Assembly: GCA_016930515.1 (NCBI GenBank)
Contig: JAFGGO010000033.1
Span: 1 to 11,900 of the forward strand
Reading direction: 5' to 3'
Length of the DNA stretch: 11,900 nt
Source: Promethearchaeota archaeon
Lineage (GTDB): Archaea; Asgardarchaeota; Lokiarchaeia; Sigyniarchaeales; SOKP01
Within the stretch, counting starts at the first letter, position 1. Each line of letters begins with the position of its first letter. The position numbers and the translations under genes are program-made. Below, piece after piece: positions 1 to 11,900 of the stretch. The notes under the pieces were generated by a model that saw only the letters and a list, made by a program, of their open reading frames with translations, was not told where the DNA came from and made no database searches.

Positions 1-13
1 ATAGTACGGGTTA

Positions 14-48
14 AAATAAATAAAAAGAAAAAAACAATAATAATAAAA
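14..48 (-). terminator. Oligo-T tract downstream of the 68..478 gene (archaeal-type terminator)
   Basis: A-runs on + (aaaataaaataaaaagaaaaaaaac) read as T-runs on - just after the stop codon. Confidence 0.5.
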
Positions 49-67
49 TTATGAGAAGTAAAATGGA

Positions 68-478
68 TTACTCTTCCATTGCCATTTGTTTTTCAATTGC
101 CTTCAAATTTTTTTGTAGGCCTTTGATCTCGCCTTGAACGGCCTTCACGGCGGTCTTTTCTTCGCTACTAATTTCTTTTAATTTCGTTTTTAAGGCCGCT
201 GCCTTGGCTTTTTTTAAACCGGCTACTTCTTTTGATAAGGCTTTTACGCTACCAGCTCTCTCTTTCTTTTTGGTGGCCCATTCGTTGGCTTTTTCAACAG
301 CTTCGTCCAATAAGCCTTGCTCAGAAGCCAACTTCGATTCAGCAGCGTTAATTTGCGAGTCGTATTCAGACTCTACTTCCTTTTCTGCAGAAGCGTTTTT
401 CTTTGCTGCTTCCTCTTCAATTTTCGTGATTTCGTCTTGTTTTGTACTAATTTGACTATTAATTTCGTCTATAGACAT
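68..478 (-). CDS. Small coiled-coil hypothetical protein (136 aa, MSIDEINSQ...AMEE)
   Basis: The ORF track gives 68..550 from a TTG, but the first 24 codons are AT-rich intergenic-like sequence. The ATG at 478 is preceded by AAAAAGTGAAAAATTCACA, the same GTGA motif seen before other genes here. The product is E/K/A-rich with heptad periodicity and no Pro. Confidence 0.85.
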   Translation of the reverse strand: MSIDEINSQISTKQDEITKIEEEAAKKNASAEKEVESEYDSQINAAESKLASEQGLLDEAVEKANEWATKKKERAGSVKALSKEVAGLKKAKAAALKTKLKEISSEEKTAVKAVQGEIKGLQKNLKAIEKQMAMEE

Positions 479-557
479 TGTGAATTTTTCACTTTTTTTT
501 TGTTTATTGATTAATTTTTTCATACAAACGGTTAAAATAATTGTTTTCAACTATTTG

Positions 558-567
558 TATTTAAATA
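558..567 (-). promoter_or_regulatory. Candidate TATA box (TATTTAAATA) for the 68..478 gene
   Basis: Palindromic TTTAAATA about 80 nt upstream of the ATG at 478. The AT-rich background makes a chance match possible. Confidence 0.3.
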
Positions 568-863
568 ATATCTTATTAGAAATTATTGTTTTTAAAATTT
601 ATTCTATCAATGATGTTTTAACTAAAGAAAAAACATTTTTTCACCAAAAATTTTGTTAAGAATAATAAAATATGCAAAACTGAATTTCTTAAAGGATTTC
701 GTTTTATTTTAAAATTTCTCAGTTATTTTTAATCTTTTTTATTTTTTCAAGAATTATATCGTCAAATCATATTTTTACTTAAAAAAATTTACACAATTGA
801 TTTTATTATTTTGAACACAATTATTTTCTTAAAAATTCGTATCTGATTTAAAATAGTTGAAAA

Positions 864-876
864 TTATAATTTAAAT
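864..876 (+). promoter_or_regulatory. Candidate TATA box (TTATAATTTAAAT) for the DMT-RAM cluster, possibly a leaderless transcript
   Basis: TTTAAAT at 870-876 lies about 30 nt upstream of ATG 903, and no GTGA motif precedes that ATG. Confidence 0.3.
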
Positions 877-902
877 GCCATGAATTCCATAGTAATGCAA
901 GC

Positions 903-2201
903 ATGCAGAACAAACATCATCTATACATTCTTTTTGCAAATATCTTATGGGGCTTGATCCCTGTCGTTGTATCTGATATTTTTAGCGAAGTATCCGTTCT
1001 CACAGTTATTTTCTTTCGATTCTTCACTTGTGGTATTGTATTTCTTATAATCGCTTTTGGTCTCCTGTTGATTAACAACAGATATACTTCTAAGCGAAGA
1101 ATACCCATAAAAATCTTTATTGATGTTTTAAAGACAAGGAACAACTTGTTTCGTAATTTTAAAAATATTCTATATTTTGGAATTTTAGGTTTTTTAGGAA
1201 TCGTCATGCAAATTATTTTTTATTTTTTGGCTTTAAAACTTACCTCAATTGGATTTGTTATGATTGGTTTTATCGTTTCAACTGTACTCATGGCAGCGTA
1301 TCAGCACGGGAAGTCGGAAAGCTTAGATGTGTTTAAATTGATGTATTTATCTTTATTAATCGTTTCAATTCTTATTATCATATATGTGAAGACATCAGAA
1401 TCTTCAAATCTTTCCTTCATTGGTTTGGTTTACGTTATTGGTTTTGGTGTTTGCTTGTTGTTTTTTCATATTTACATTAATAGGGATCCTTTAGCGATAG
1501 ACGAGCTAAAAATAATAAGTGATAACAGAAATTACAAGGTAATTAGGTTAATGTTCAAGTTATCTTTCATGTTTTTACTCGGTATCGCAGGAATGTTCCT
1601 ATTTTTGTTGTTAATGCTTTTAATTCCCGTGGAACCCATTTTAGTATCGGAGATACATCTTTTTTTCGCACAACTTGCTGACGCGTCCATCTATTTTAGG
1701 TGGGAGATCCTATTCATAATAATATTTTCTACGATTCTTCCCTATATATTAATCTTTATTGCTTATAGTTTTTGGAGCCCCTACAATCTCACCTATAATC
1801 AATGGACCTCTATTATAACGGTTGTTGAACCGATGACCGCTCTTTTTTTTGGAGCAATTTTTATCAATGAATATTTTCCAACGGAATTATTAGTAATAAC
1901 ACTCTTCTTGCTTGCTTTATCCATCATTCTACGCTATATTCACGAAAGATCGGTCAAGGTCAACGCCTGCGTCCTCTTGGATATAAAAGAAGGATGTATG
2001 GAAGACTTACCGCTCAAGTTATTAGGATTTAGTGGAATTACCCGAATAGATATGTTAGTAGGTAAGTACGACATGATCTTAACGGTTATAAAAAGCTCGA
2101 TCAAGGACTTTTATTACCTCAACGAGCAATTGCAAAACTTAGAAGAGATTAAAAAAACTACCATATTATTTATTAACAAGGTTTCGAAAATAAATGCTTA
2201 A
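903..2201 (+). CDS. DMT/EamA-family transporter (10 TM) fused to a C-terminal Lrp/AsnC ligand-binding (RAM) domain
   Basis: EamA signatures ILWG, FFRF, FYFLALKLTS and SIITVVEPMTALFFGAIFINE, with ten hydrophobic segments in aa ~7-346. Residues ~351-432 (nt 1953-2198) are soluble, with a beta-alpha-beta-beta-alpha-beta pattern and the Lrp G-x-Y-D motif (LVGKYDMIL). Confidence 0.85.
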   Translation: MQNKHHLYILFANILWGLIPVVVSDIFSEVSVLTVIFFRFFTCGIVFLIIAFGLLLINNRYTSKRRIPIKIFIDVLKTRNNLFRNFKNILYFGILGFLGIVMQIIFYFLALKLTSIGFVMIGFIVSTVLMAAYQHGKSESLDVFKLMYLSLLIVSILIIIYVKTSESSNLSFIGLVYVIGFGVCLLFFHIYINRDPLAIDELKIISDNRNYKVIRLMFKLSFMFLLGIAGMFLFLLLMLLIPVEPILVSEIHLFFAQLADASIYFRWEILFIIIFSTILPYILIFIAYSFWSPYNLTYNQWTSIITVVEPMTALFFGAIFINEYFPTELLVITLFLLALSIILRYIHERSVKVNACVLLDIKEGCMEDLPLKLLGFSGITRIDMLVGKYDMILTVIKSSIKDFYYLNEQLQNLEEIKKTTILFINKVSKINA

Positions 2202-2226
2202 TCACGCAAAGGTGATAAAAAAAAAT

Positions 2227-2469
2227 ATGTTAAAAGCCATCATATTTTTCAAGATAGACTTGAAGGCAATGAATAAAGTTATTGAAAAACTCAAGGAAAT
2301 CCCCCAAATAAAGAAATTATTGTCTCTCACGGGAGATTACGATGCCATCGCCGAAATCGAAACTGAAACTTCCGAAGAATTGTTTGATATTTTTTGCACG
2401 CAAATTGATATGATTGACGGCCTTACTGACACGAACACCCACGTTGTCATGAAATCCTGGGAAAAGTGA
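2227..2469 (+). CDS. Stand-alone Lrp/AsnC ligand-binding (RAM) domain protein, no HTH (80 aa)
   Basis: MLKAIIFFKID...LTGDYDAIAEIE...IDGLTDTNTHVV is a typical AsnC C-terminal domain. ATG 2227 is preceded by GGTGA (2211-2215). An alternative start at 2194 overlaps the upstream gene. Confidence 0.9.
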   Translation: MLKAIIFFKIDLKAMNKVIEKLKEIPQIKKLLSLTGDYDAIAEIETETSEELFDIFCTQIDMIDGLTDTNTHVVMKSWEK

Positions 2470-2473
2470 AACA

Positions 2474-3271
2474 ATGAAGGAAATTCCAAGTTTTATTTTA
2501 GCCACCACCTTTCACGAGCCTGAATTTAAATTAAAAATTGCTTTTGAAAAAGCGCTTCCAGATATAAAACGGCTTTTTCCACTTCGAATTGCTTGCTGCA
2601 CGCCAACAACCGATGATAAGGTGGTATCTTTTTTAAAAAAAGAAGGATTCGTGGTATCAATCAGCCCATCAATGAGTCAAGTCGAGACATATACTTTAGC
2701 ACTCAAATTAGCTCTTGAACTCGTAGAAGAAAGATTTTTACAAAAGATTTTATACATCGATCTTGATCGCTTAGTTCATTGGATTAATTTTTTTCCAAAT
2801 GAAATCGCTAATCTCATCGAAAAAACGGACTTTGATTATCTTCATATTGGACGGAATGCTCGTGCGTTTGATACGCATCCTTCCACACAAAAAGAAACTG
2901 AAATTGTGGTAAACGAAATGGCATCTATAATCCTTGGATTCGAGCGTATTATCGATGTCATCTCCGCATGCTTCGCCTTAAGCCCAAAAATACTAGAAAA
3001 ATTGATTGCCATAAAACATAAGACATCTAAGGGTTTTTATTGCTCGTGGCCTGTGCTTTGTTGGAGATTAGCAAAAAATAAAATATTAATTGAAGTAGAA
3101 GGGCTCGAATGGGAAACACCCGATAGGTTTCAAGAGGAAATTAACGACTTGGGATATGTCCTTTGGATGGAACAATTTCAATCGGCTCGCGAATGGAAAA
3201 AAAGAGTTGCGTTAATGAGGGAATGTATACTCGAGTTCATAAATATAATTAATATTAGCGACCTTACTTAA
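2474..3271 (+). CDS. Uncharacterised protein, probable GT-A (glycosyltransferase family 2-like) fold
   Basis: N-terminal beta strand (FILATTFHEP) and a hydrophobic strand ending in DxD (ILYIDLDR), followed by IGR...AFDTHP...Q..TE...N and GLEWETPD. Starts 4 nt after the RAM gene stop. The fold assignment is from motifs only. Confidence 0.6.
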   Translation: MKEIPSFILATTFHEPEFKLKIAFEKALPDIKRLFPLRIACCTPTTDDKVVSFLKKEGFVVSISPSMSQVETYTLALKLALELVEERFLQKILYIDLDRLVHWINFFPNEIANLIEKTDFDYLHIGRNARAFDTHPSTQKETEIVVNEMASIILGFERIIDVISACFALSPKILEKLIAIKHKTSKGFYCSWPVLCWRLAKNKILIEVEGLEWETPDRFQEEINDLGYVLWMEQFQSAREWKKRVALMRECILEFINIINISDLT

Positions 3272-3393
3272 AAATCAATATAAAACCTTGAATATATCTC
3301 GCATCTTCTATTTCTTTCGATTTTATATTGTTATATAATTTATTATTGAACTTTCATTTCGTAATTTTTTCAATCAGAAATACTTTTTAGACA

Positions 3394-3423
3394 AATAAAA
3401 ATAAAAAATAAGAAAGAGAAATA
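3394..3423 (-). terminator. Oligo-T/pyrimidine tract downstream of the 3425..5002 gene
   Basis: The A/G-rich run on + reads T/C-rich on - immediately after the stop codon, in a convergent intergenic region. Confidence 0.45.
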
Positions 3424-3424
3424 A

Positions 3425-5002
3425 TTACCAAATGAGGTTTGCGATGACTTCTTTCGCCGCCGCAGATTCCTTCTTGCCTAAGACTTTTCTTACCCTGAGA
3501 TCGTTAATGGCGTCTTCTAATCGAGTGTCTAAATTCTTCATTTCCATCAAGTTGCACTTTTCAGCGCTTGTTTCGACCAAGTCGATCATTGAATTGTCCT
3601 TGTTCATCATGTTTTCGATTTGTTTTCTGAATCCTTCCTTGATTTTCGTGTTCACCGGCTTTCCCTTATCAATTAAAATGGGCAACACGGGACACCTCAT
3701 GGTAGTTCTGTTCGAGTTCGGATCGATGAAGTAGAAAATGAATATGGGAATGCCAACGATGACTTCCTTGGTCTTCACTTCGATCGAATAGTCGTTAAAG
3801 AACGCTTGCACGCTCGTCATATCAATATCTTTTACGCGCTCTATGTTGTCCAAGCAGGATTGTTTTTCTCTTTTTATCAAGGTAACAACGTCTTCGGCTG
3901 ATGATAGGTCGGATTGTTGAGACTTGTGCTTGTCGTCGATCTGTTTCTGGACTTCCCGTATCTTACGTTCCAACTCTCTCATCTTGGCTTGGTGCGCTTT
4001 CTCAGTGTCACTTATTTCCTTGTTAATGCTTTTTTCTACATTGTTAATGTCCATCTTATATCTGTTAATGGTATCTCCAAGAGTCTTGTAGTTCAAATCC
4101 AAATCTTTCACGCTTTCTTGGATTAAAAACCAATCTTTTTTCTCAATAGCGCCCTTAATTTTATCTACGGAGCCCTTTACATTGTTGATGTCGTTAAGGC
4201 AATCTCCTGTTTTATCGCTGATCTTGTACTTTCCAGTCTTTACCAAGTCTTCGGGCGTTTTATCAAAGTGTTTGTTTTTCTCCGCTTCTAACTCCTTGTT
4301 TAAAATTGCAAGTTGCTTTTCTTCTTCGCTCGTGTCGACTCTCTTGCCCCGAAGCTTGTCTACTTCTTGTGCGCTTTTTTGAATCCATCTTTCGCACAAT
4401 TTTGTTATGATCGTTCCGTATTCGTCGAGCGTCTGAGTATCTCGTTGAGATACGAAATCGCTGATTTCTGGAGCCATTCTTGCTTGTTCCACGCTTTTAG
4501 CTATTGGTCCACCCTCCAAAATGAAATATGGTTCTCCAAAAGAGTTCAAGTTGTATTGATTGATGAAAAAGTTCTTGAAAAAATCCATTTCGCTGGAACT
4601 GAATAAGGCTTCTTGTATAACGGTATTTCTCTTGAAGTTTTTCGTTTTTTTCAAGTATGTGGTATTGTACGAACTTAAAGCCTCCAAAAAAGAGTAGGGA
4701 TCAGCACCCTTGATGACATTATCAGGCTTTACGGGAATGGTAGAATATTTGCCAACGTTCAATTTTTCCGATTTATTTCCCAAATAGGAACAAACACAAG
4801 CGCGGGTGTCACTAATGGGAATTAATTTAACGGGCCAGAAGCAAGTAGCGACTCTATTAATTTTTCCAAGTTTTTTCACGTTCTTACCCAAGATGCCTAT
4901 GCATTCGATTAAAGCCATTGCCATCTCGTTTAATAATGCTGCTTTTGAGCGAGCAGGGATGACGTCTCCGAGATTTATCAGGTATGGTATGACTTTTTCC
5001 AT
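3425..5002 (-). CDS. Hypothetical protein with a long central coiled coil between globular N- and C-terminal regions (~525 aa)
   Basis: Long ORF (track start 5014 GTG). ATG 5002 (MEKVIPYL) is preferred because GTGA at 5014-5011 then acts as the RBS-like motif. The middle third is heptad-rich in K/E/D/I/L, the termini are beta-rich, and there is no Walker A motif. Confidence 0.85.
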   Translation of the reverse strand: MEKVIPYLINLGDVIPARSKAALLNEMAMALIECIGILGKNVKKLGKINRVATCFWPVKLIPISDTRACVCSYLGNKSEKLNVGKYSTIPVKPDNVIKGADPYSFLEALSSYNTTYLKKTKNFKRNTVIQEALFSSSEMDFFKNFFINQYNLNSFGEPYFILEGGPIAKSVEQARMAPEISDFVSQRDTQTLDEYGTIITKLCERWIQKSAQEVDKLRGKRVDTSEEEKQLAILNKELEAEKNKHFDKTPEDLVKTGKYKISDKTGDCLNDINNVKGSVDKIKGAIEKKDWFLIQESVKDLDLNYKTLGDTINRYKMDINNVEKSINKEISDTEKAHQAKMRELERKIREVQKQIDDKHKSQQSDLSSAEDVVTLIKREKQSCLDNIERVKDIDMTSVQAFFNDYSIEVKTKEVIVGIPIFIFYFIDPNSNRTTMRCPVLPILIDKGKPVNTKIKEGFRKQIENMMNKDNSMIDLVETSAEKCNLMEMKNLDTRLEDAINDLRVRKVLGKKESAAAKEVIANLIW

Positions 5003-5115
5003 TTTTTGCATCACTTTTTTTGTTATATTATGTGTTTAATCGAAATTTGCAATTAAACTTTTTCTTTTACATTTTCGGTCGCTTGGCAATCTGCGCGATT
5101 TAACAATTCGGAAAT

Positions 5116-5745
5116 TCACGCTTTTAGTGCGATAATATATCGCAACGAGTGTATGTGTCTTCCTAATTCTCCATGATCTTCTTTATCTTCAATAAGTTCT
5201 GTTTTAATAACGGACATATCAGTAAAATGATTTAGGAGATCTTGTTTCGAAAAGTAATGAACCGGACGACCTGGCTTGCTTTCAAATGTTTGTGGTTCTA
5301 TCTCGCGACCTTTCCCGTAACTTTTCTCTTTTTCAGAAAATACTATAAAAAAGGCTATTCCACCAACCTTGAGGAGTTCATAACATTTATTTAAAAACCT
5401 ATATCTATCGTTTTTTAACAACAGATGTAACACATTAAAACAATAGATGGCATCATACTTTTCGTTATCGTATACCATATTCAAGACATCTCCTCGCACG
5501 AAATGCGTTTTAGAATCAAACAATCTCGCAATATTTAATGCTTTTTGGGAAATTTCTATTCCAGTTACCTCAATATCATGTTGTGAAAAAAATCTCGTGT
5601 TTCGCCCGTATCCTGCTCCAGGAACGAGCAAGGTTTTGACATGGTAATCTTTAAAGAAATTAAATGCTATAAAGGCGGAATTACTTGGTTTTTCGCCCCA
5701 AATTTTACCTCCCTTCTTAAACCTCTCATTCCAATATTCTTCCAA
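5116..5745 (-). CDS. Class I SAM-dependent methyltransferase
   Basis: Motif I LLVPGAGYGRN, acidic strand VTGIEIS, GDV, YDAIYCFNVLH and LLKVGG, with an N-terminal YWNERF..GGKIWG.KPS typical of TPMT/TehB-like small-molecule methyltransferases. TTG start. Confidence 0.9.
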   Translation of the reverse strand: MEEYWNERFKKGGKIWGEKPSNSAFIAFNFFKDYHVKTLLVPGAGYGRNTRFFSQHDIEVTGIEISQKALNIARLFDSKTHFVRGDVLNMVYDNEKYDAIYCFNVLHLLLKNDRYRFLNKCYELLKVGGIAFFIVFSEKEKSYGKGREIEPQTFESKPGRPVHYFSKQDLLNHFTDMSVIKTELIEDKEDHGELGRHIHSLRYIIALKA

Positions 5746-5800
5746 GGTTCATCTTCTTTACACTTTAAATAAAATTGTAAAAGGTAATGTAAAAAAAAAG

Positions 5801-5816
5801 ATTTTGTTAACAAAAT
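5801..5816. promoter_or_regulatory. Perfect 16-bp palindrome ATTTTGTTAACAAAAT, candidate operator
   Basis: Read directly from the sequence. Lies in the divergent region between the methyltransferase and the small ORF. Confidence 0.45.
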
Positions 5817-5875
5817 TTTTTAATCACCTATAGAAACCTTTTTTTTCCATCGTTAATTGATTTAATTGGGATCAT

Positions 5876-6037
5876 ATGGTGAAAAAAGAGAAGAAAATGG
5901 ACGATAAGGGTCCCGATAACGATGACATAGAAAAGGTTTTTGAAAGTACATGGAATAACTGGTCTTCCCGGAGGAGATGCGAAAGTACCCACATTCCAGA
6001 GATTTTTAAGAAAGAGAAGAGAGAAGATAATCAATAA
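5876..6037 (+). CDS. Candidate small protein (53 aa) MVKKEKKMDDKGPDNDDIEKVFESTWNNWSSRRRCESTHIPEIFKKEKREDNQ
   Basis: Hand-translated from ATG 5876 to TAA 6035-6037 and absent from the ORF track. It is a purine-rich, higher-GC island inside AT-rich DNA. An alternative ATG at 5897 follows GGTGA (5878-5882). Confidence 0.55.
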   Translation: MVKKEKKMDDKGPDNDDIEKVFESTWNNWSSRRRCESTHIPEIFKKEKREDNQ

Positions 6038-6188
6038 CTTAACTTATTCTTTAATTATAGAGCGATAATCCTCTCTTTGTATGATAAATTTAAATCCTAT
6101 AAGATATGTTTAATTTTTCTTGTTTTAATCACGACATTAGTGTTTTTCAAAAAAAGGTGTCTTAGGAGTAAGAAATAAAAACTTGAAA

Positions 6189-6245
6189 ATAATCATTATG
6201 ATTGTGGACAATTTTCTTGAAAAAACTCCTTAAAAGGTGTACAAT
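6189..6245. promoter_or_regulatory. Cluster of overlapping palindromes upstream of the CoA-transferase-GNAT gene
   Basis: ATAAT-C-ATTAT (6189-6199), AATCAT-T-ATGATT (6191-6203), ATTGT-GG-ACAAT (6201-6212), and a partial copy GTGTACAAT (6237-6245). Confidence 0.4.
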
Positions 6246-6333
6246 CGTGTCCAAATTAAATTCTTGTCTATATGCATGGAGTTAACACCATTGACCATAA
6301 AATTAATTATAAAATATTGGGTGGAATAAAAAA

Positions 6334-8232
6334 GTGAATTTTTTTGATGATAACTTGAGAAAATACGAACATAAGAAAGTATCGCTTGAAAACGCAATAA
6401 ATAAATTTGTGAAGCCCGGAGATAGAATTTTTATTGATTCGGGGTGTGCTGAACCGACGGATCTGACGCAAAAATTAATAGAACTCGGTCCAACCTTACC
6501 TGATGTAGAGATCTTGCATTTTTTAAGCTTGAGCGACTTAGATTATTACAAGACGGCAGGTGGTATTGAAGATTTATTTCGTCATAACGCTTTTTTTATC
6601 GGAAAAAGCTTGCGAAAAGCAATAAAAGAAGGTTTAGCCGATTATACACCAATGCTACTTTCCGAAATTCCACGCTTGTTTAAATCGGGACAAATGCACG
6701 TGGATGCGGCTCTCGTGCAGGTTAGTCCTCCAGATAAATACGGATTTTGCAGCTTTGGAATTAATGTAGATATAGTTAAACCCATAGCCGAAGCAGCTGA
6801 ACGGGTAATTGCCGAGATTAATCCAAAAATGCCGCGTACTTTAGGAGATTCGTTCATACACATCGATGATATCGACGTATTTGTGATTTCGGAACACGAC
6901 ATCATTGAATTTAGCTACGAACCGCCTAACGAGGTGGCAGAAAAAATTGGTAGTTTCGTAAGCAGCCTCATCGAAGATGAATCTACGATTCAAACTGGAA
7001 TAGGACAAATACCAAATGCGTGTATCGAAAAATTGGAAAGTAAAAGGGATTTAGGCGTTCATAGTGAAGTTTTTTCAGATGGGATCGTGGATCTAGTCGA
7101 AGAAGGCATCATAACTTGTAAAAAAAAAACATTACACAATGGAAAAATGATATGTTCTTTTGTAATGGGTTCACGTAAGCTTTACGATTTTGTTGACGAC
7201 AATCCATTTGTTGAGTTCCATCCCTGCGATTATGTGAATGATCCTAACGTTATTGGTCAAAACAGGAAACAAGTGGCAATTAACGCGGCGCTCTCGGTCG
7301 ATTTAACGGGTCAAATAAACGCGGATTCGGTTGGTCATGAGTTTTACAGCGGAATAGGGGGGCAGGTAGATTTTGTAAGAGGAGCTGCGAGAGCAGTTGA
7401 TGGTAAACCGATTATGGTCTTACCTTCAACGGTTAAATTGGCTAATGGAGAAGTTGTTTCAAGAATCGTTGCTTCTTTACAACCAGGTACGGGCGTAGTT
7501 GTAACGAGAGGAGACGTTCATTATGTAGTCACGGAATGGGGCATCGCTCATCTTTATGGAAAGAGCGTTAGAGAAAGAGTTTTGCAAATGATTAATATAG
7601 CCCATCCCGATTTTAGAGAGGATCTTCTAGAGCAAGCGAAAAAATGGAACTATGTGTATTCAGATCAAAAATTACCAAGATCAATAGAAGGAAGGATCAG
7701 TCTTTATCCAGAAAAATATGAAACCTCTCTAACTCTTAAAAGTGGCAAGAAAATACTCGTAAGACCTATCAAAACAACTGATGAACGAATGCTCCAGGAG
7801 TTGTATTATTCCTTGGATAGTAAGGATAGATATTATAGGTTTTTCACCCCTGTGAAGGATTTTCGACATAAAAAAATTCAATACAATCTAACTATTGATT
7901 ACGCAACGAATATGGTTCTTGTGTGCGAATATTCCGAAGAAAATAAAAAAGAAATCATTGCGATTGGCGGATTTTTCAAGATTGAACAGCCAAACATTGC
8001 TGAAATTGCGTTTACAGTACATGACGAATGGCGAAACGAAGGGATCACGACTTTTTTGATGCATTATTTAGTGAAGATCGCAAGGGAACTTAGTTACAAG
8101 GCATTGAGCGGTAGCATATTATTGGAGAATAAGGCGATGTTACACATTATCAACAAGGGAGAATATCCCTTAAAATTTAAACAAATTGATTCGGGTGTAT
8201 TCGATTTTGTCATGGATATTACATTATCATAA
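6334..8232 (+). CDS. Acetyl-CoA hydrolase/CoA-transferase (4-hydroxybutyrate CoA-transferase-like) fused to a C-terminal GNAT acetyltransferase
   Basis: Family I CoA-transferase motifs VSPPDKYGFCSFG, EINPKMPRTLG, LGVHSEVFSDG (catalytic Glu245), SGIGGQVDFVRGA and VHYVVTEWGIA. From aa ~458 there is a Pat-type GNAT: SGKKILVRPIK, YYRFF, AEIAFTVHDEWRNEGI, ENKAML. GTG start with GGTGG upstream. Confidence 0.93.
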   Translation: MNFFDDNLRKYEHKKVSLENAINKFVKPGDRIFIDSGCAEPTDLTQKLIELGPTLPDVEILHFLSLSDLDYYKTAGGIEDLFRHNAFFIGKSLRKAIKEGLADYTPMLLSEIPRLFKSGQMHVDAALVQVSPPDKYGFCSFGINVDIVKPIAEAAERVIAEINPKMPRTLGDSFIHIDDIDVFVISEHDIIEFSYEPPNEVAEKIGSFVSSLIEDESTIQTGIGQIPNACIEKLESKRDLGVHSEVFSDGIVDLVEEGIITCKKKTLHNGKMICSFVMGSRKLYDFVDDNPFVEFHPCDYVNDPNVIGQNRKQVAINAALSVDLTGQINADSVGHEFYSGIGGQVDFVRGAARAVDGKPIMVLPSTVKLANGEVVSRIVASLQPGTGVVVTRGDVHYVVTEWGIAHLYGKSVRERVLQMINIAHPDFREDLLEQAKKWNYVYSDQKLPRSIEGRISLYPEKYETSLTLKSGKKILVRPIKTTDERMLQELYYSLDSKDRYYRFFTPVKDFRHKKIQYNLTIDYATNMVLVCEYSEENKKEIIAIGGFFKIEQPNIAEIAFTVHDEWRNEGITTFLMHYLVKIARELSYKALSGSILLENKAMLHIINKGEYPLKFKQIDSGVFDFVMDITLS

Positions 8233-8247
8233 CGCAAACTGTTAACG

Positions 8248-8270
8248 AAACGACGGAATTCGTCGTTTTT
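8248..8270 (+). terminator. Hairpin AAACGACG-GAATT-CGTCGTTT ending in a T-run, candidate terminator
   Basis: Perfect 8-bp stem with a 5-nt loop, 15 nt after stop codon 8232, with TTTTT at 8266-8270. Confidence 0.6.
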
Positions 8271-8275
8271 CCTAT

Positions 8276-8298
8276 TTGTCAAGAAGACAATTTATATA
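8276..8298 (+). promoter_or_regulatory. Archaeal promoter for the AOR operon: TATA box TTTATATA (8291-8298), with inverted repeat TTGTC-N5-GACAA (8276-8290) over the BRE position
   Basis: Canonical TTTATATA preceded by purine-rich AAGACAA, about 70 nt upstream of ATG 8365. GTGA motif at 8355-8358. Confidence 0.6.
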
Positions 8299-8364
8299 GG
8301 TGGGAATTTTAAATTATATCATGTTGTATTAATAAATATAGATTAAACATACAAGTGAAAAAAA

Positions 8365-10281
8365 ATGAGTAAGTCTAAGGAAATGCCAATACCAGACGAA
8401 GTTAAAGGGTATTCACAAAAACGACTTGACGTCGATTTAACGAATGGAAAAGTAAAAGAAAGCGTCATTCCTAAGGAGTACTGCCGCGACTGGATTGGAG
8501 GATACGGTTTTGGAGCAAAAGTATTATGGGACGAATTAAAACCAGGAGTAGATCCTTTAAGCCCCGATAATGTATTCGTATACGCTCACGGACCGTTTCC
8601 AACCACGATTTTGCCAACATCTTCAAAATATGGCGTGTTTGCCAAATCACCCTTAACGGGAATGTTTGGAATGGCAATATCTTCGGGATCGGTTGGTGCG
8701 CAAGCTCGAAGAGCCGGAATCAACATGATCGTTTTTAAAGGAAAGGCTCCCGAGCCCGTCTATTTGGTAGTTGACGACGATGATCGATATTTAGTTCCTT
8801 GTAAGGATAGCCTTTGGGGGAAAGGCACTTGGGAAACCGAAGACATATTGCGAGAAGAATTTCAAGATCATCGACTTGCTGTAATGTCAATTGGTCCGGC
8901 AGGCGAGCGAATGTCTCGCTTAGGTTGCATTACTAACGATAGGAACAGACAAGCAGGTAGGACGGGAATGGGTGCAGTTATGGGCTCTAAGAATCTTAAA
9001 GCCGTTGCATTTAGAGGAACGAAAAGTGTAAATGTTGCTCAACCTGCAGAATTTTATAAGTTGGCAAAAAAGTTGATTAAAGTGGCAAATGGACCTGCCA
9101 CGGCAAAATATCGAGATCTGGGCACTCCAGCGGGATTAACGAGCTACAACAAATTAGGCATGATGCCAACCCATAATTATCGCGAGGGAACTTGGGAAAA
9201 AATAGACGATGGGACCTTCACGGGAGACACGCTAAACGCAGATTGGATCGTTAAAAAGGTTGCGTGTTCTCAGTGTTCAATTGCGTGCGATCACATAGCA
9301 CATGTGCCTAAAACCCATCCACTCTGGCCTAATCTCTACTCGTCTATAGATGTTGAAATGTGTTATTCATACGGTACAAATACCGGTTGTTCTGATTGGC
9401 CTACCGTGTTCAAGTGCGTCCAACAATGCGACGACTTGGGAATTGACGCCATCTCGGGAGGTGTAACTTGTTCAATGGCTTGCGAGTTGTACGAAGTCGG
9501 ACTCATCACCAAGGAAGACCTTGGGTACGAATTACCCTTCGGATCCACAGCGAATTTAGTGAAATTTAACGAAGAGATGATACTTGGAAAGGGTTTTCCA
9601 GGAAAGATCTTTGGAGACGGTACTAAAGAAGCGGGAAAGCGACTCGAAGAAATGGGTCGAAAAAACGCAAGTTATTATGGGATGCAAATCAAGGGATTGG
9701 AAATGCCCGCATTTGATATTCACGGCATGACAACCTTTGCAGTAGGGGAAAGCGTGTCAATTAGAGGCGCATGTCATTTGAGAAATGGCGCATATGGAGT
9801 AGACACTAAAGGAACTTACGATAGATTCGGATACGAAAAACCAGTGGAACGAGGAAAAGCAATAAAAGACGTGGAAGATATTTACGCCATAGTTGATTCT
9901 TATATAATCTGTAAATTTACGAGGGGTATTTATGAGAACGACGACGAAATGGCGAAAGTCTATGAGCTTGTCACGGGTATTCCCGCAACCGGGGATTCTA
10001 TAAACAAAAGAGGAGAGGCCATCGTAACTCTTTCAAAATGTTTCAACATAAGAGAAGGATGGACAAGGGCTGACGATCACCCTCCAGAACGGTTTTTCAA
10101 GGAACCACACACCAAGGGTCCCGCAAAAGGATTCACGTTAGATGAAAAAGGGTATCAATCGGTTCTTAGCGGCTATTATGAGGCAAGGGGATGGGACAAA
10201 GACACGGGAATACCGACCGACGCCAAGTTAAAGGAACTCGGAATGGATTTTGTGATTGGAAAATTAGGAGGTAAGAAGTAA
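8365..10281 (+). CDS. aor: Aldehyde:ferredoxin oxidoreductase family (tungsten bis-pterin, AOR/WOR) catalytic subunit
   Basis: Motifs KSPLTG, SIGPAGE, AGRTGMGAVMGSKNLKAV, CxxCxxxC (C301/C304/C308) plus C516 for the [4Fe-4S] cluster, DDLGIDAIS pterin-binding motif, RGACH, FNIREG and YYEARGWD..GIP. Confidence 0.95.
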   Translation: MSKSKEMPIPDEVKGYSQKRLDVDLTNGKVKESVIPKEYCRDWIGGYGFGAKVLWDELKPGVDPLSPDNVFVYAHGPFPTTILPTSSKYGVFAKSPLTGMFGMAISSGSVGAQARRAGINMIVFKGKAPEPVYLVVDDDDRYLVPCKDSLWGKGTWETEDILREEFQDHRLAVMSIGPAGERMSRLGCITNDRNRQAGRTGMGAVMGSKNLKAVAFRGTKSVNVAQPAEFYKLAKKLIKVANGPATAKYRDLGTPAGLTSYNKLGMMPTHNYREGTWEKIDDGTFTGDTLNADWIVKKVACSQCSIACDHIAHVPKTHPLWPNLYSSIDVEMCYSYGTNTGCSDWPTVFKCVQQCDDLGIDAISGGVTCSMACELYEVGLITKEDLGYELPFGSTANLVKFNEEMILGKGFPGKIFGDGTKEAGKRLEEMGRKNASYYGMQIKGLEMPAFDIHGMTTFAVGESVSIRGACHLRNGAYGVDTKGTYDRFGYEKPVERGKAIKDVEDIYAIVDSYIICKFTRGIYENDDEMAKVYELVTGIPATGDSINKRGEAIVTLSKCFNIREGWTRADDHPPERFFKEPHTKGPAKGFTLDEKGYQSVLSGYYEARGWDKDTGIPTDAKLKELGMDFVIGKLGGKK

Positions 10282-10818
10282 ATGGCACCGAAAAAACAAA
10301 AACATCATCAATTTATCGTAGTTAACGCAGATCTCTGCACGGGGTGCGAGACGTGCGAGTCGGTATGCTCTTTCGTGCACGACGGTAGCTTTAACCCGAT
10401 AAACACGAGGATCCACAGGATTCGTATCGAACCCATCTTGAATGTCGCCTTGTCTTGTCAAAAGTGCGACGATGCGCCTTGCATTAGATCTTGTCCAGAG
10501 AAGGCGCTTGATAAAGACGAGGAGGGTTCCATTTTAGTTGACAATGACAAGTGCAACGGCTGCGGCTTTTGCGTCCGAGCGTGCGATTTTGGAGTTATTT
10601 CTCTTCATTTGAATACCCAGAAAGCGATTGTTTGCGATTTATGCGAAGGCATGAAAGAGGAATTTATCGACCCTGAAGTGGGTAAGAAAGAGCCCCAATG
10701 CATAGCAGTCTGCCCCAAAGAAGCCATCTCGCTCAAGACCGTGGTCCAAATCGGCGAAGAAACGAGGATAGAGGCTGCTAAAAAGCTCTTTTCGGAGATG
10801 CTCGAAGAGGCAAAATAA
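10282..10818 (+). CDS. 4x[4Fe-4S] polyferredoxin (DmsB/HydN type), probable electron-transfer subunit of the AOR
   Basis: 16 Cys in four groups: CTGCETCESVC, CQKCDDAPCIRSCP, CNGCGFCVRAC, CDLC...PQCIAVCP. The ATG directly abuts the aor stop, and GGAGGT at 10267-10272 suggests translational coupling. Confidence 0.95.
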   Translation: MAPKKQKHHQFIVVNADLCTGCETCESVCSFVHDGSFNPINTRIHRIRIEPILNVALSCQKCDDAPCIRSCPEKALDKDEEGSILVDNDKCNGCGFCVRACDFGVISLHLNTQKAIVCDLCEGMKEEFIDPEVGKKEPQCIAVCPKEAISLKTVVQIGEETRIEAAKKLFSEMLEEAK

Positions 10819-10826
10819 ATCAACCA

Positions 10827-10849
10827 TTTTTATAATTTTTTCTTTTTTT
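10827..10849 (+). terminator. Oligo-T terminator of the aor-ferredoxin operon
   Basis: Three T-runs of 5-7 nt just after stop codon 10818. Confidence 0.6.
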
Positions 10850-10932
10850 ATTACTCTTAGATATCTATTATTTTCGAGAATAATTACTAATCTTTAAAAA
10901 AGTCCTATTTAAATTTTTGAGAAGATCGTAAT

Positions 10933-11820
10933 TTACATCCCATCGCTGCCAATTCCAATAGAGAGGTCGTAATTAATGGCAGAATTCATAAACAAAATCA
11001 CTATTAGTAAAATCATAAAAATGATACATAGAATCGATGTTTTTTTAAGCGCTTTCCAAGATATTAAGGACAAGTAATACATAAAGTCTTCTTTATCTTT
11101 AGGATCATCAGAAAGAGTTAGTAGGCGAAAATTCATTTCGAGATATTGTTCATTCCATTTTTTTCCAATAAAAAAGAATGGATATACAAAAATGAGACCG
11201 AAAGAAATTCCGGTCATCCAAGATAAAAATACATCCCTTGTAATATAATTAATTGGTAAGCATGTACAAAACGCTAGAATAAAAATGAAAGAAAATATTG
11301 ATATTGTTCGATTTCTCTTCGAAAAGATACTCTTTACCTCGTTTAACTCTGCTTCAAAGGGCTTGAATTTGGACCGTATTTCTTGAATTTTTTCTTTAAA
11401 GGCTATTTTTCGCTCCTTTGTAAAAATTAATTCCTTTAAAATTTCATTGTATTTTTTATCACTTTCACTCTTGAGATTAACGCTATATTGGACTAGATTT
11501 AAATCATATAAAATCTTGAATCCTATAATCGGAGAGATAAGTCCAATTGTAATCAATGTTCCTGCAATGATAAAACCTATAATTGAAGGTAGAGAGAGCA
11601 ATGTGATAAAAAAAAATGATACTCTTGCCAAAGCTAAACTATGGATGCATGTGAGTAATAAAATGCTCCCTCTAGCTATTTTATGAGATTGCAATTTCTT
11701 TAATTCCTCCAGATTGAGCGATTCGTATTTCTTTACATCCTTAAGTTGTTTCCCGCAATTTTCACAAATAATTGCTCTGTTCTTGTTGATCTCTCCACAG
11801 TACTTACATTTTCCAAACAT
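10933..11820 (-). CDS. Zinc-ribbon-domain membrane protein (about 5 TM), hypothetical
   Basis: N-terminal CKYCG...AIICENCGKQL zinc ribbon, then a TM pair, a charged helical linker, a second TM pair and a C-terminal TM. Confidence 0.8.
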   Translation of the reverse strand: MFGKCKYCGEINKNRAIICENCGKQLKDVKKYESLNLEELKKLQSHKIARGSILLLTCIHSLALARVSFFFITLLSLPSIIGFIIAGTLITIGLISPIIGFKILYDLNLVQYSVNLKSESDKKYNEILKELIFTKERKIAFKEKIQEIRSKFKPFEAELNEVKSIFSKRNRTISIFSFIFILAFCTCLPINYITRDVFLSWMTGISFGLIFVYPFFFIGKKWNEQYLEMNFRLLTLSDDPKDKEDFMYYLSLISWKALKKTSILCIIFMILLIVILFMNSAINYDLSIGIGSDGM

Positions 11821-11900
11821 TTTTTATCTTAATTAATAAGTTATAATGTATTTGAAAAATCCAAACAATTCTTTCTAATACAGGATTTTGTATAATGAAT

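Follow-up and report, generated by a model that had tools for sequence, protein, structure and literature searches.

A DMT-fold transporter with a C-terminal RAM domain and a linked free RAM protein in Asgard archaea: a candidate amino-acid sensor acting after translation

Why should a membrane transporter end in the ligand-binding domain of a transcription regulator, and why should the next gene encode that domain by itself? This question is raised by two genes, here called A and B, at positions 903 to 2469 of an archaeal DNA stretch of 11,900 nucleotides (nt), referred to below as the window. It consists of positions 1 to 11,900 (forward strand) of contig JAFGGO010000033.1 from a Promethearchaeota archaeon (assembly GCA_016930515.1; Asgardarchaeota; Lokiarchaeia; Sigyniarchaeales; SOKP01). 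A preliminary description of the locus had read gene A as an EamA/DMT transporter fused to an Lrp-type RAM domain and gene B as a free RAM protein, and had proposed that the two co-assemble. We found that this architecture is real and conserved, that the two genes are near-obligately linked and that both RAM types occur naturally fused in a single chain. Taken together with structural models, these sequence comparisons suggest that A and B are one two-part system, in which a RAM sensor would control a DMT transporter after translation and not via transcription; we put the probability of this reading at about 55%.

Pfam alone weakly supports the reading of gene A as a ten-helix EamA transporter with a RAM domain. 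The N-terminal EamA repeat (residues 6–160) was barely over the PF00892 cut-off (28.7 against 28.2 bits), the second repeat (residues 170–350) had no Pfam match, and the tail alone scored 18.9 bits with PF01037, under the cut-off of 25. No NCBIfam family was assigned to the protein. We obtained an AlphaFold2 model of gene A from an alignment of 44 homologues, with a predicted local distance difference test score (pLDDT) of 86.8 and a predicted template-modelling score (pTM) of 0.85. Ten membrane helices were observed in this model, followed by a beta-alpha-beta-beta-alpha-beta unit at residues 353–425, and the prediction was confident across the junction of the two parts. In Foldseek comparisons, about 350 columns of the membrane domain were aligned to LicB (7paf), YddG (5i20), SLC35B1, Vrg4 and TPT, with a probability of 1.00 and template-modelling (TM) scores by target of 0.59–0.66; identity to solved DMT proteins was 14–18%. 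An Atlas EamA cluster matched residues 1–347 with a TM score of 0.80. The tail superimposed on the stand-alone RAM protein DM1 (2e1a) with a root-mean-square deviation of 1.4 Å over 74 columns (TM by target 0.88), and a profile built from 44 gene A tails matched DM1 with an E-value of 3.8e-10 and STS042 with an E-value of 9.5e-7.

The tail is predicted to be cytoplasmic, because hydropathy and the distribution of lysine and arginine (K/R) in the loops fit an N-in/C-in topology. Loops 62–85 and 194–211 are K/R-rich (7 and 3 K/R residues, respectively), and loops 254–260 and 293–301 are K/R-poor, with none in either. No helix-turn-helix (HTH) family matched gene A at E-values up to 10 or gene B at E-values up to 0.01, and judged by this absence neither protein belongs to the Lrp/AsnC transcription regulators proper. 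The preliminary description of a ten-helix EamA transporter running into a RAM domain of about 80 residues, with an HTH in neither protein, was thus borne out by the model, the Foldseek matches, the tail profile and homologues that carry both PF00892 and PF01037.

A word-indexed search recovered 47 full-length homologues of gene A, down to 37% identity and nearly all of 429–445 residues, many of them with precomputed matches to both of these Pfam families. Among 400 Asgard genomes, matches were present in 99, which represent 25 of 85 genera and include 31 of the 90 high-quality genomes, and every complete match in the 400 ran through the RAM tail. The fusion is therefore a conserved family and not an artefact of one assembly, which was a concern attached to the preliminary description. 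When the gene A family was searched with HMMER against 1.84 billion representative proteins, only 167 were retrieved at E-values up to 1e-3 and 43 at up to 1e-30, with hardly any generic EamA proteins among them. With so few proteins retrieved from a collection of this size, the membrane domain forms a small and separate branch within the DMT superfamily.

When 185,579 species genomes were scanned for a pattern of the family, 68 loci were recovered, each carrying the label of an Asgard lineage or 'uncultured archaeon', and the homologues as a whole were labelled Promethearchaeota, Hermod-, Thor-, Hod- and Odinarchaeota. Two outliers were observed, a family member labelled Korarchaeota (P0151) and a bacterial clade labelled Spirochaetota. 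In addition, two ESM-Atlas clusters that are commonest in Thermoplasmatota resembled gene A in language-model features (likeness 0.95). One of the two was also structurally alike, with TM scores of 0.69/0.72 over 387 residues and PF01037 in 96% of its members. Three distant relatives of the membrane domain (P0166, 692 residues; P0175, 829 residues; P0177, 618 residues; E-values from 1e-7 to 2e-11) have long extensions without a Pfam match at the place where the RAM tail would be, and carriers of the gene A type may have recruited other cytoplasmic domains as well.

The stop codon of gene A occupies positions 2199–2201, and the open reading frame (ORF) listed after it, at 2194–2469, contains an ATG at 2227 that is preceded by the AGGTGA motif. 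We took this ATG as the start of gene B because the 80-residue product then matches the lengths of its homologues, of which 43 were found (59–91 residues, nearly all 79–81). The spacer between A and B would be compatible with their co-transcription. Gene B scored 49.9 bits with PF01037, so that the gene 25 nt after A does encode a RAM domain alone, as first described, and the whole of its 80 residues is taken up by that domain. Its profile matched the RAM domain of FL11/PH1519 with an E-value of 1.5e-10, the TGDYD and T-x-T motifs being aligned. Of the 12 PF01037 matches in the genome from which the window comes, gene B is the only short stand-alone RAM protein, the others being located in ORFs of 153–320 residues. 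The tail profile and the gene B family were related by hhalign with a probability of 95.5% (E-value 1.5e-8, 18% identity), and BLASTP found no similarity between the gene A tail and gene B. A recent duplication of one RAM domain into the other was therefore rejected, the homology being detectable at the profile level only.

We then looked at how constantly a free RAM gene accompanies the fusion gene. In all nine loci around a set of diverse homologues, a RAM gene of 79–89 residues lies downstream on the same strand, 20–32 nt away. The same was true of species-representative loci: all 56 that could be evaluated have a free RAM gene immediately after the fusion gene (53 found by the ORF filter and three by six-frame search). 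Across 53 homologous loci, the A–B spacer ranged from –4 to 40 nt. Among more distant genomes the free gene is adjacent in 16 of 20. The four non-adjacent cases all fall in one family (f4), and in three of these four genomes a B-like RAM gene is present 2.3–4.7 kb downstream on the same strand. The arrangement also varies in other ways. Seven loci of one Asgard family (L015–L020 and L022) have two different free RAM genes in tandem after the fusion gene, and hence three distinct RAM domains per locus; in one metagenomic lineage (L144) the free gene is directly upstream instead; and no free RAM gene was found near the Korarchaeota-labelled locus (L143). A free RAM gene is thus near-obligately linked to the fusion transporter, and the linkage noticed in the window holds in other genomes.

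A further arrangement was observed in which both RAM types are part of the same polypeptide. In P0108, a protein of 541 residues from a JGI metagenome, the gene A family profile extends over the membrane domain into the beginning of the tail RAM, and residues 461–541 match the gene B profile end to end (E-value 3e-17). A second protein of 541 residues, P0241, is 99% identical to it, with five substitutions, and comes from a 112-kb contig of an NCBI metagenome-assembled genome labelled Spirochaetota. In both, roughly 57 residues separate the two profile matches, and they comprise the remainder of the tail RAM with a linker of about 27 residues. Each of the two genes has another free RAM gene, of 86 residues, after it. 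A sequencing error in this frame is argued against by the two assemblies, in which the frame stays open despite different point changes. By sequence, the layout corresponds to the arrangement with two free RAM genes in which the first one has become fused in. This natural fusion is independent evidence that the tethered and the B-type RAM domains work in one complex. The genes around P0241 are bacterial in appearance (RNase III with a dsRBD, SBP_bac_1 proteins, glycoside hydrolases and IclR). The existence of this bacterial version suggests that the module either left the archaea by horizontal transfer or has a wider range that is still hidden.

To see how the two domains might pair, the tail (residues 346–432) and B were modelled as a complex, each with its own alignment and together with three controls. 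The interface score ipSAE was 0.67 for the tail with B and 0.00 for the best of the three controls; 58 of 80 solved complexes attain this mark, as do 2 of 110 mismatched pairs. Between runs the contacts agreed to at least 98%, and the partner pLDDT was at least 88. In the modelled interface, beta2 of the tail (379–389) lies against the last strand of B (72–80), and the last strand of the tail (420–432) against beta2 of B (28–38). As modelled, this pairing is the canonical RAM dimer. The earlier proposal that the tethered and the free RAM co-assemble is backed to this extent, namely by the linkage, by the natural fusion seen in two assemblies and by a complex model that passed its controls.

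The ligand-contact residues of the two domains were compared with those of Grp (ST1022). In Grp, the alpha-amino group of the ligand is held by D102 and the backbone of the G99–D102 loop, and the carboxylate by the backbone of G99 and by T132/T134 from a subunit of the neighbouring dimer; these threonines were called conserved throughout the family by the authors, and the ligand site of Lrp-type proteins is located between dimers (PMC2504300). In gene B the amino-acid-binding motif is complete (T35-G36-D37-Y38-D39 and T69-N70-T71), with G36, D39 and T71 invariant in 39 homologues. The tail keeps the G-x-x-D loop, in which G387 is invariant and D390 nearly so (more than 90% of homologues), whereas its Thr pair is not kept: the Thr-x-Thr position reads T419/I421 in gene A and I-x-I in the family consensus. 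Judged by these residues, the tail retains only half of the ligand motif and the two domains are not equivalent. As B keeps the Thr pair that the tail has lost, B could, within an assembly of dimers, complete ligand sites that the tail cannot form alone.

These observations led us to the following working scheme. The tail and B would form a canonical RAM dimer through reciprocal beta2/beta4 pairing, and such dimers would associate further, with each other or with B homodimers, to create ligand sites between dimers as in Lrp/AsnC proteins. An assembly higher than 1:1 would be needed because of this location of the Lrp-type site. In it, B would supply the carboxylate-binding threonines, and both domains the G-x-x-D loop that binds the amino group. 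Binding of a cytoplasmic amino acid would alter the assembly and thereby restrain or release the rocker-switch movement of the transporter. This would result in feedback (trans) inhibition if gene A is an importer or exchanger, and in activation by substrate if it is an exporter. In its most specific form, in which DMT activity is set through inter-dimer sites by a hetero-oligomer of the half-degenerate tethered RAM with its obligate free partner, possibly with two or more transporters bridged into a ring, the scheme is tentative and clearly less probable than the general statement that A and B are one system.

For an indication of the amino acid concerned, we clustered the neighbours within 9 kb on either side of 41 loci from 19 sampled genera; the genomes are kin, and the counts overstate their independence. 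A rocD-like class-III aminotransferase gene diverges about 200 nt upstream of the pair in 17 loci, and a gene of the amino-acid-kinase family (AA_kinase) is near the pair in 17. KamE-like and KamD-like aminomutase genes occur in 15 and 11 loci, respectively, and an ornithine/aspartate carbamoyltransferase (OTCase) gene in 10. One further locus has an arginase fragment and a lysine 2,3-aminomutase. This ornithine/lysine catabolic context is suggestive as synteny, not as statistics. The best named relatives of gene B are FL11 and LysM, whose ligands are Lys/Arg/Gln and Lys, respectively (PMC2995911, Table 1). From the neighbours in other genera and these relatives, and not from the window, we guess that both effector and substrate belong to the basic amino acids (lysine, ornithine or arginine), a guess that may be right in roughly one case in three.

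Several points weigh against the proposal that A and B are an amino-acid-responsive unit. The control-passing complex may reflect the many solved RAM dimers and would then show likeness rather than binding. Mutual information with average product correction over 65 non-redundant tail/B pairs gave no enrichment at the interface, at a depth of low power (Mann–Whitney p 0.36; 6 of the top 50 pairs at the interface against 5.0 expected), and this depth cannot separate a heterodimer from stacked homodimers. The modelled 1:1 heterodimer cannot bind a ligand canonically, because the pocket sits between dimers. The Thr pair of the tail is lost and the tail and B share only 18% identity, so either of them may have ceased sensing. 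Some members of the family are without an adjacent partner, namely those of f4 and the Korarchaeota-labelled locus. The amino-acid-catabolic neighbourhood is limited to 3–4 of the 19 sampled genera and is absent from the genus of the window. Finally, the membrane domain diverges too far from characterised EamA proteins for YddG or EamA to indicate its class of substrate.

Of the other explanations, the one that survives best is that the transporter acts as a transceptor or by sequestration: the tethered RAM would capture or release B, or full-length Lrp-type regulators, at the membrane and so change transcription. The genome does offer possible partners in about ten longer PF01037 proteins (those of 153–320 residues), the RAM domain of gene B is closest to that of the regulator FL11, and mixed octamers of FL11 and DM1 are documented (PMC2995911). 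Lrp-type regulators paired with EamA genes are also known, for example PA2577/PA2576 (PMC8707732). However, the single chain of transporter, RAM and RAM fixes a B-type domain to the membrane and is a poor fit with a shuttle. In every locus examined, the linkage of B was with the transporter gene and never with an HTH gene, and no Lrp-type HTH gene recurs in the neighbourhood of the 41 clustered loci. We regard this explanation as unlikely, and prefer post-translational control of the transporter by the RAM pair.

Slightly less likely again is that the tail and B are a structural module, required for assembly, stability or oligomerisation (for example, for joining two protomers) and not involved in ligand sensing. 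RAM domains are obligate dimerisers, the Pfam score of the tail is under the cut-off, and the threonines that the tail has lost belong to the site defined in Grp (PMC2504300). On such a view, however, it is hard to explain why B keeps all the canonical ligand-contact residues, with three of them invariant, and why the tail has kept its glycine invariant and its aspartate nearly so.

We also considered that a metabolite other than an amino acid, such as a nucleotide sugar or another DMT substrate, is carried and sensed, with the 265-residue ORF downstream of B as the partner enzyme in the window. Besides YddG, the proteins that best match the membrane domain in structure include carriers of choline and of nucleotide sugars, DM1 was reported to respond to 2-oxoglutarate also (PMC2995911), and the ORF begins 4 nt past the stop codon of B. 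Against this, the effectors of Lrp-type RAM domains in Table 1 of the same review are all amino acids, and B keeps the residues that contact the alpha-amino and alpha-carboxylate groups. The ORF follows the pair in only 4 of the 41 loci (see also L008 6586–7380) and has no Pfam or NCBIfam match, and the recurrent neighbours elsewhere are genes of amino-acid catabolism. This explanation is improbable, a little more so than a purely structural role. The remaining one, that a lost stop codon or a chimeric contig created the fusion, has nothing in its favour beyond the weak Pfam scores of gene A and is refuted by the same full-length architecture in 99 genomes from many independent assemblies and by a single-chain model that is confident across the junction.

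The coordinates of the pair, of the other genes of the window and of the bacterial single-chain form are given in Table 1. The window is AT-rich, with a G+C content of 25–45%. The 529-residue protein encoded downstream is 57% identical to an unannotated coiled-coil homologue at locus L001 and recurs 0.7–5 kb downstream of the pair in 11 of the 41 loci, from 4 genera. It matched no Pfam family, giving only weak SMC/ATG17-like coiled-coil matches. Some loci have a gamma-glutamyl transpeptidase of 530 residues at this place, but the protein has no similarity to that transpeptidase, and the possibility that it is a divergent form of the enzyme was rejected. In the genus of the window it is this coiled-coil protein that recurs as a neighbour. 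A methyltransferase gene is also present downstream of the pair in the window. The aldehyde:ferredoxin oxidoreductase and the 4Fe-4S protein after it would be compatible with a fermentative lifestyle. In several genomes of one genus (g12, L103–L111; e.g. L006 6610–7149), a gene for a Ras/Arf-like small GTPase is convergent on the free RAM gene, about 270 nt after it.

Table 1. Positions of the A–B pair and its parts, of other features of the window, and of the single-chain form in other loci
Feature	Position	Strand	Basis
Gene A: DMT/EamA-fold transporter with C-terminal RAM domain, 432 residues	903–2201	+	ORF, translation, Pfam, AlphaFold2, homologues
Gene A membrane domain, residues 1–351: ten helices, DMT fold, predicted N-in/C-in	903–1955	+	DSSP on model, Foldseek, hydropathy, K/R
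Gene A tethered RAM domain, residues 353–425	1959–2177	+	model, DM1 match, tail profile, tail alignment
A–B spacer, 25 nt, with Shine–Dalgarno-like AGGTGA at 2210–2215	2202–2226	+	sequence
Gene B: stand-alone RAM protein, 80 residues, without HTH	2227–2469	+	PF01037, homologues, FL11 profile match
265-residue ORF, starting 4 nt after the stop codon of B	2474–3271	+	
529-residue protein with long central coiled-coil-like region, convergent on the cluster	3425–5014	–	
632-residue fusion: acetyl-CoA hydrolase/transferase N- and C-terminal domains with C-terminal GNAT	6334–8232	+	Pfam
Aldehyde:ferredoxin oxidoreductase (638 residues), then 178-residue poly-ferredoxin-like 4Fe-4S protein (ATG at 10282)	8365–10818	+	
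Single-chain 541-residue form with free RAM gene, high-G+C bacterial version	L033 3001–4897; L102 7683–9579		

Asgard archaea are thought to live by fermenting amino acids. The module is found inside ornithine/lysine catabolic clusters in several genera, and it may be a main route by which such substrates enter or are exchanged. If the proposed control of the transporter by the RAM pair is true, it would be the first example of a DMT-type secondary transporter whose activity is governed by a hetero-oligomer of RAM domains. Direct feedback by a metabolite is known for only a few transporters, to which the RAM domain and the DMT superfamily would then be added. In Asgard and some other archaea, amino-acid sensing of the Lrp type would have shifted from promoters to the membrane. 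Archaea commonly encode stand-alone RAM proteins, whose physiological role was called unclear in a 2010 review (PMC2995911). In the module they would have a concrete function, forming the soluble part of a sensor bound to the transporter, and at least one class of these proteins would be transporter subunits and not transcription co-factors. The three natural variants (one free RAM, two free RAMs, and one RAM fused in) are ready-made constructs for structural work.

We found no published description of a DMT/EamA–RAM fusion in the searchable literature, in agreement with the preliminary description, which knew of none. The sole Asgard match with 'eamA' in that literature concerned an unrelated regulator gene beside a transporter and was set aside. 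A 2023 review of the post-translational regulation of transporters mentions neither Lrp/RAM nor DMT (PMC10710835). In the databases these proteins are named 'EamA family transporter', 'hypothetical protein' or 'Lrp/AsnC ligand binding domain-containing protein'.

Each part of the system has known counterparts. Gene A has in common with YddG (5i20) and LicB (7paf) the ten-helix DMT fold, with the EamA match of Pfam on the first repeat. It differs from YddG and the EamA proteins in being very divergent and in having a cytoplasmic RAM tail of 80 residues and extra helices in its loops. The tail and B share the RAM fold and signature with DM1 (2e1a), STS042 of Sulfolobus tokodaii (2zbc), FL11/PH1519, Grp/ST1022 and LysM. 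In contrast to the Lrp/AsnC regulators and the demi-FFRPs, there is no DNA-binding domain here, one RAM domain is fused to a transporter and the free RAM is genetically dedicated to it. Mixed RAM assemblies of the kind proposed for the tail and B are documented for FL11 with DM1 (PMC2995911). In Pseudomonas aeruginosa the same two families are coupled in the pair PA2577/PA2576, a ligand domain of the Lrp type controlling a transporter of the EamA type (PMC8707732). In that pair regulation acts on transcription, by way of an HTH and a promoter region that is shared, whereas A and B have no HTH and the ligand domain forms part of the transporter.

The proposed subunit logic can be compared with that of RCK-gated K+ channels such as MthK, in which one ligand-binding domain occurs both tethered to the membrane and in soluble form, the two together building a regulatory assembly. 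The soluble form of MthK is made from a second start inside the channel gene itself, and eight identical domains of the Rossmann-like RCK type make up its ring on an ion channel. The RAM domains of A and B, by contrast, come from two genes, share 18% identity, have unequal ligand motifs and differ from RCK in fold and cargo. The closest functional parallel to the mechanism proposed for A and B may be the trans-inhibition of MetNI and ModBC, in which substrate bound at the interface of fused C-terminal domains (C2 of MetNI, and those of ModC) restricts conformational cycling (PMC10710835). Those domains are homodimeric and are located on the ATPase subunits of primary ABC transporters, whereas gene A is a secondary DMT carrier, its domain is of the RAM type and a separate free subunit would be needed. 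The comparison with MthK would thus catch the logic of the subunits and not the fold, with trans-inhibition of the MetNI type as a parallel that is at least as close. Regulatory domains on transporters were already known; a RAM domain on a DMT carrier, together with a dedicated free RAM subunit, is new.

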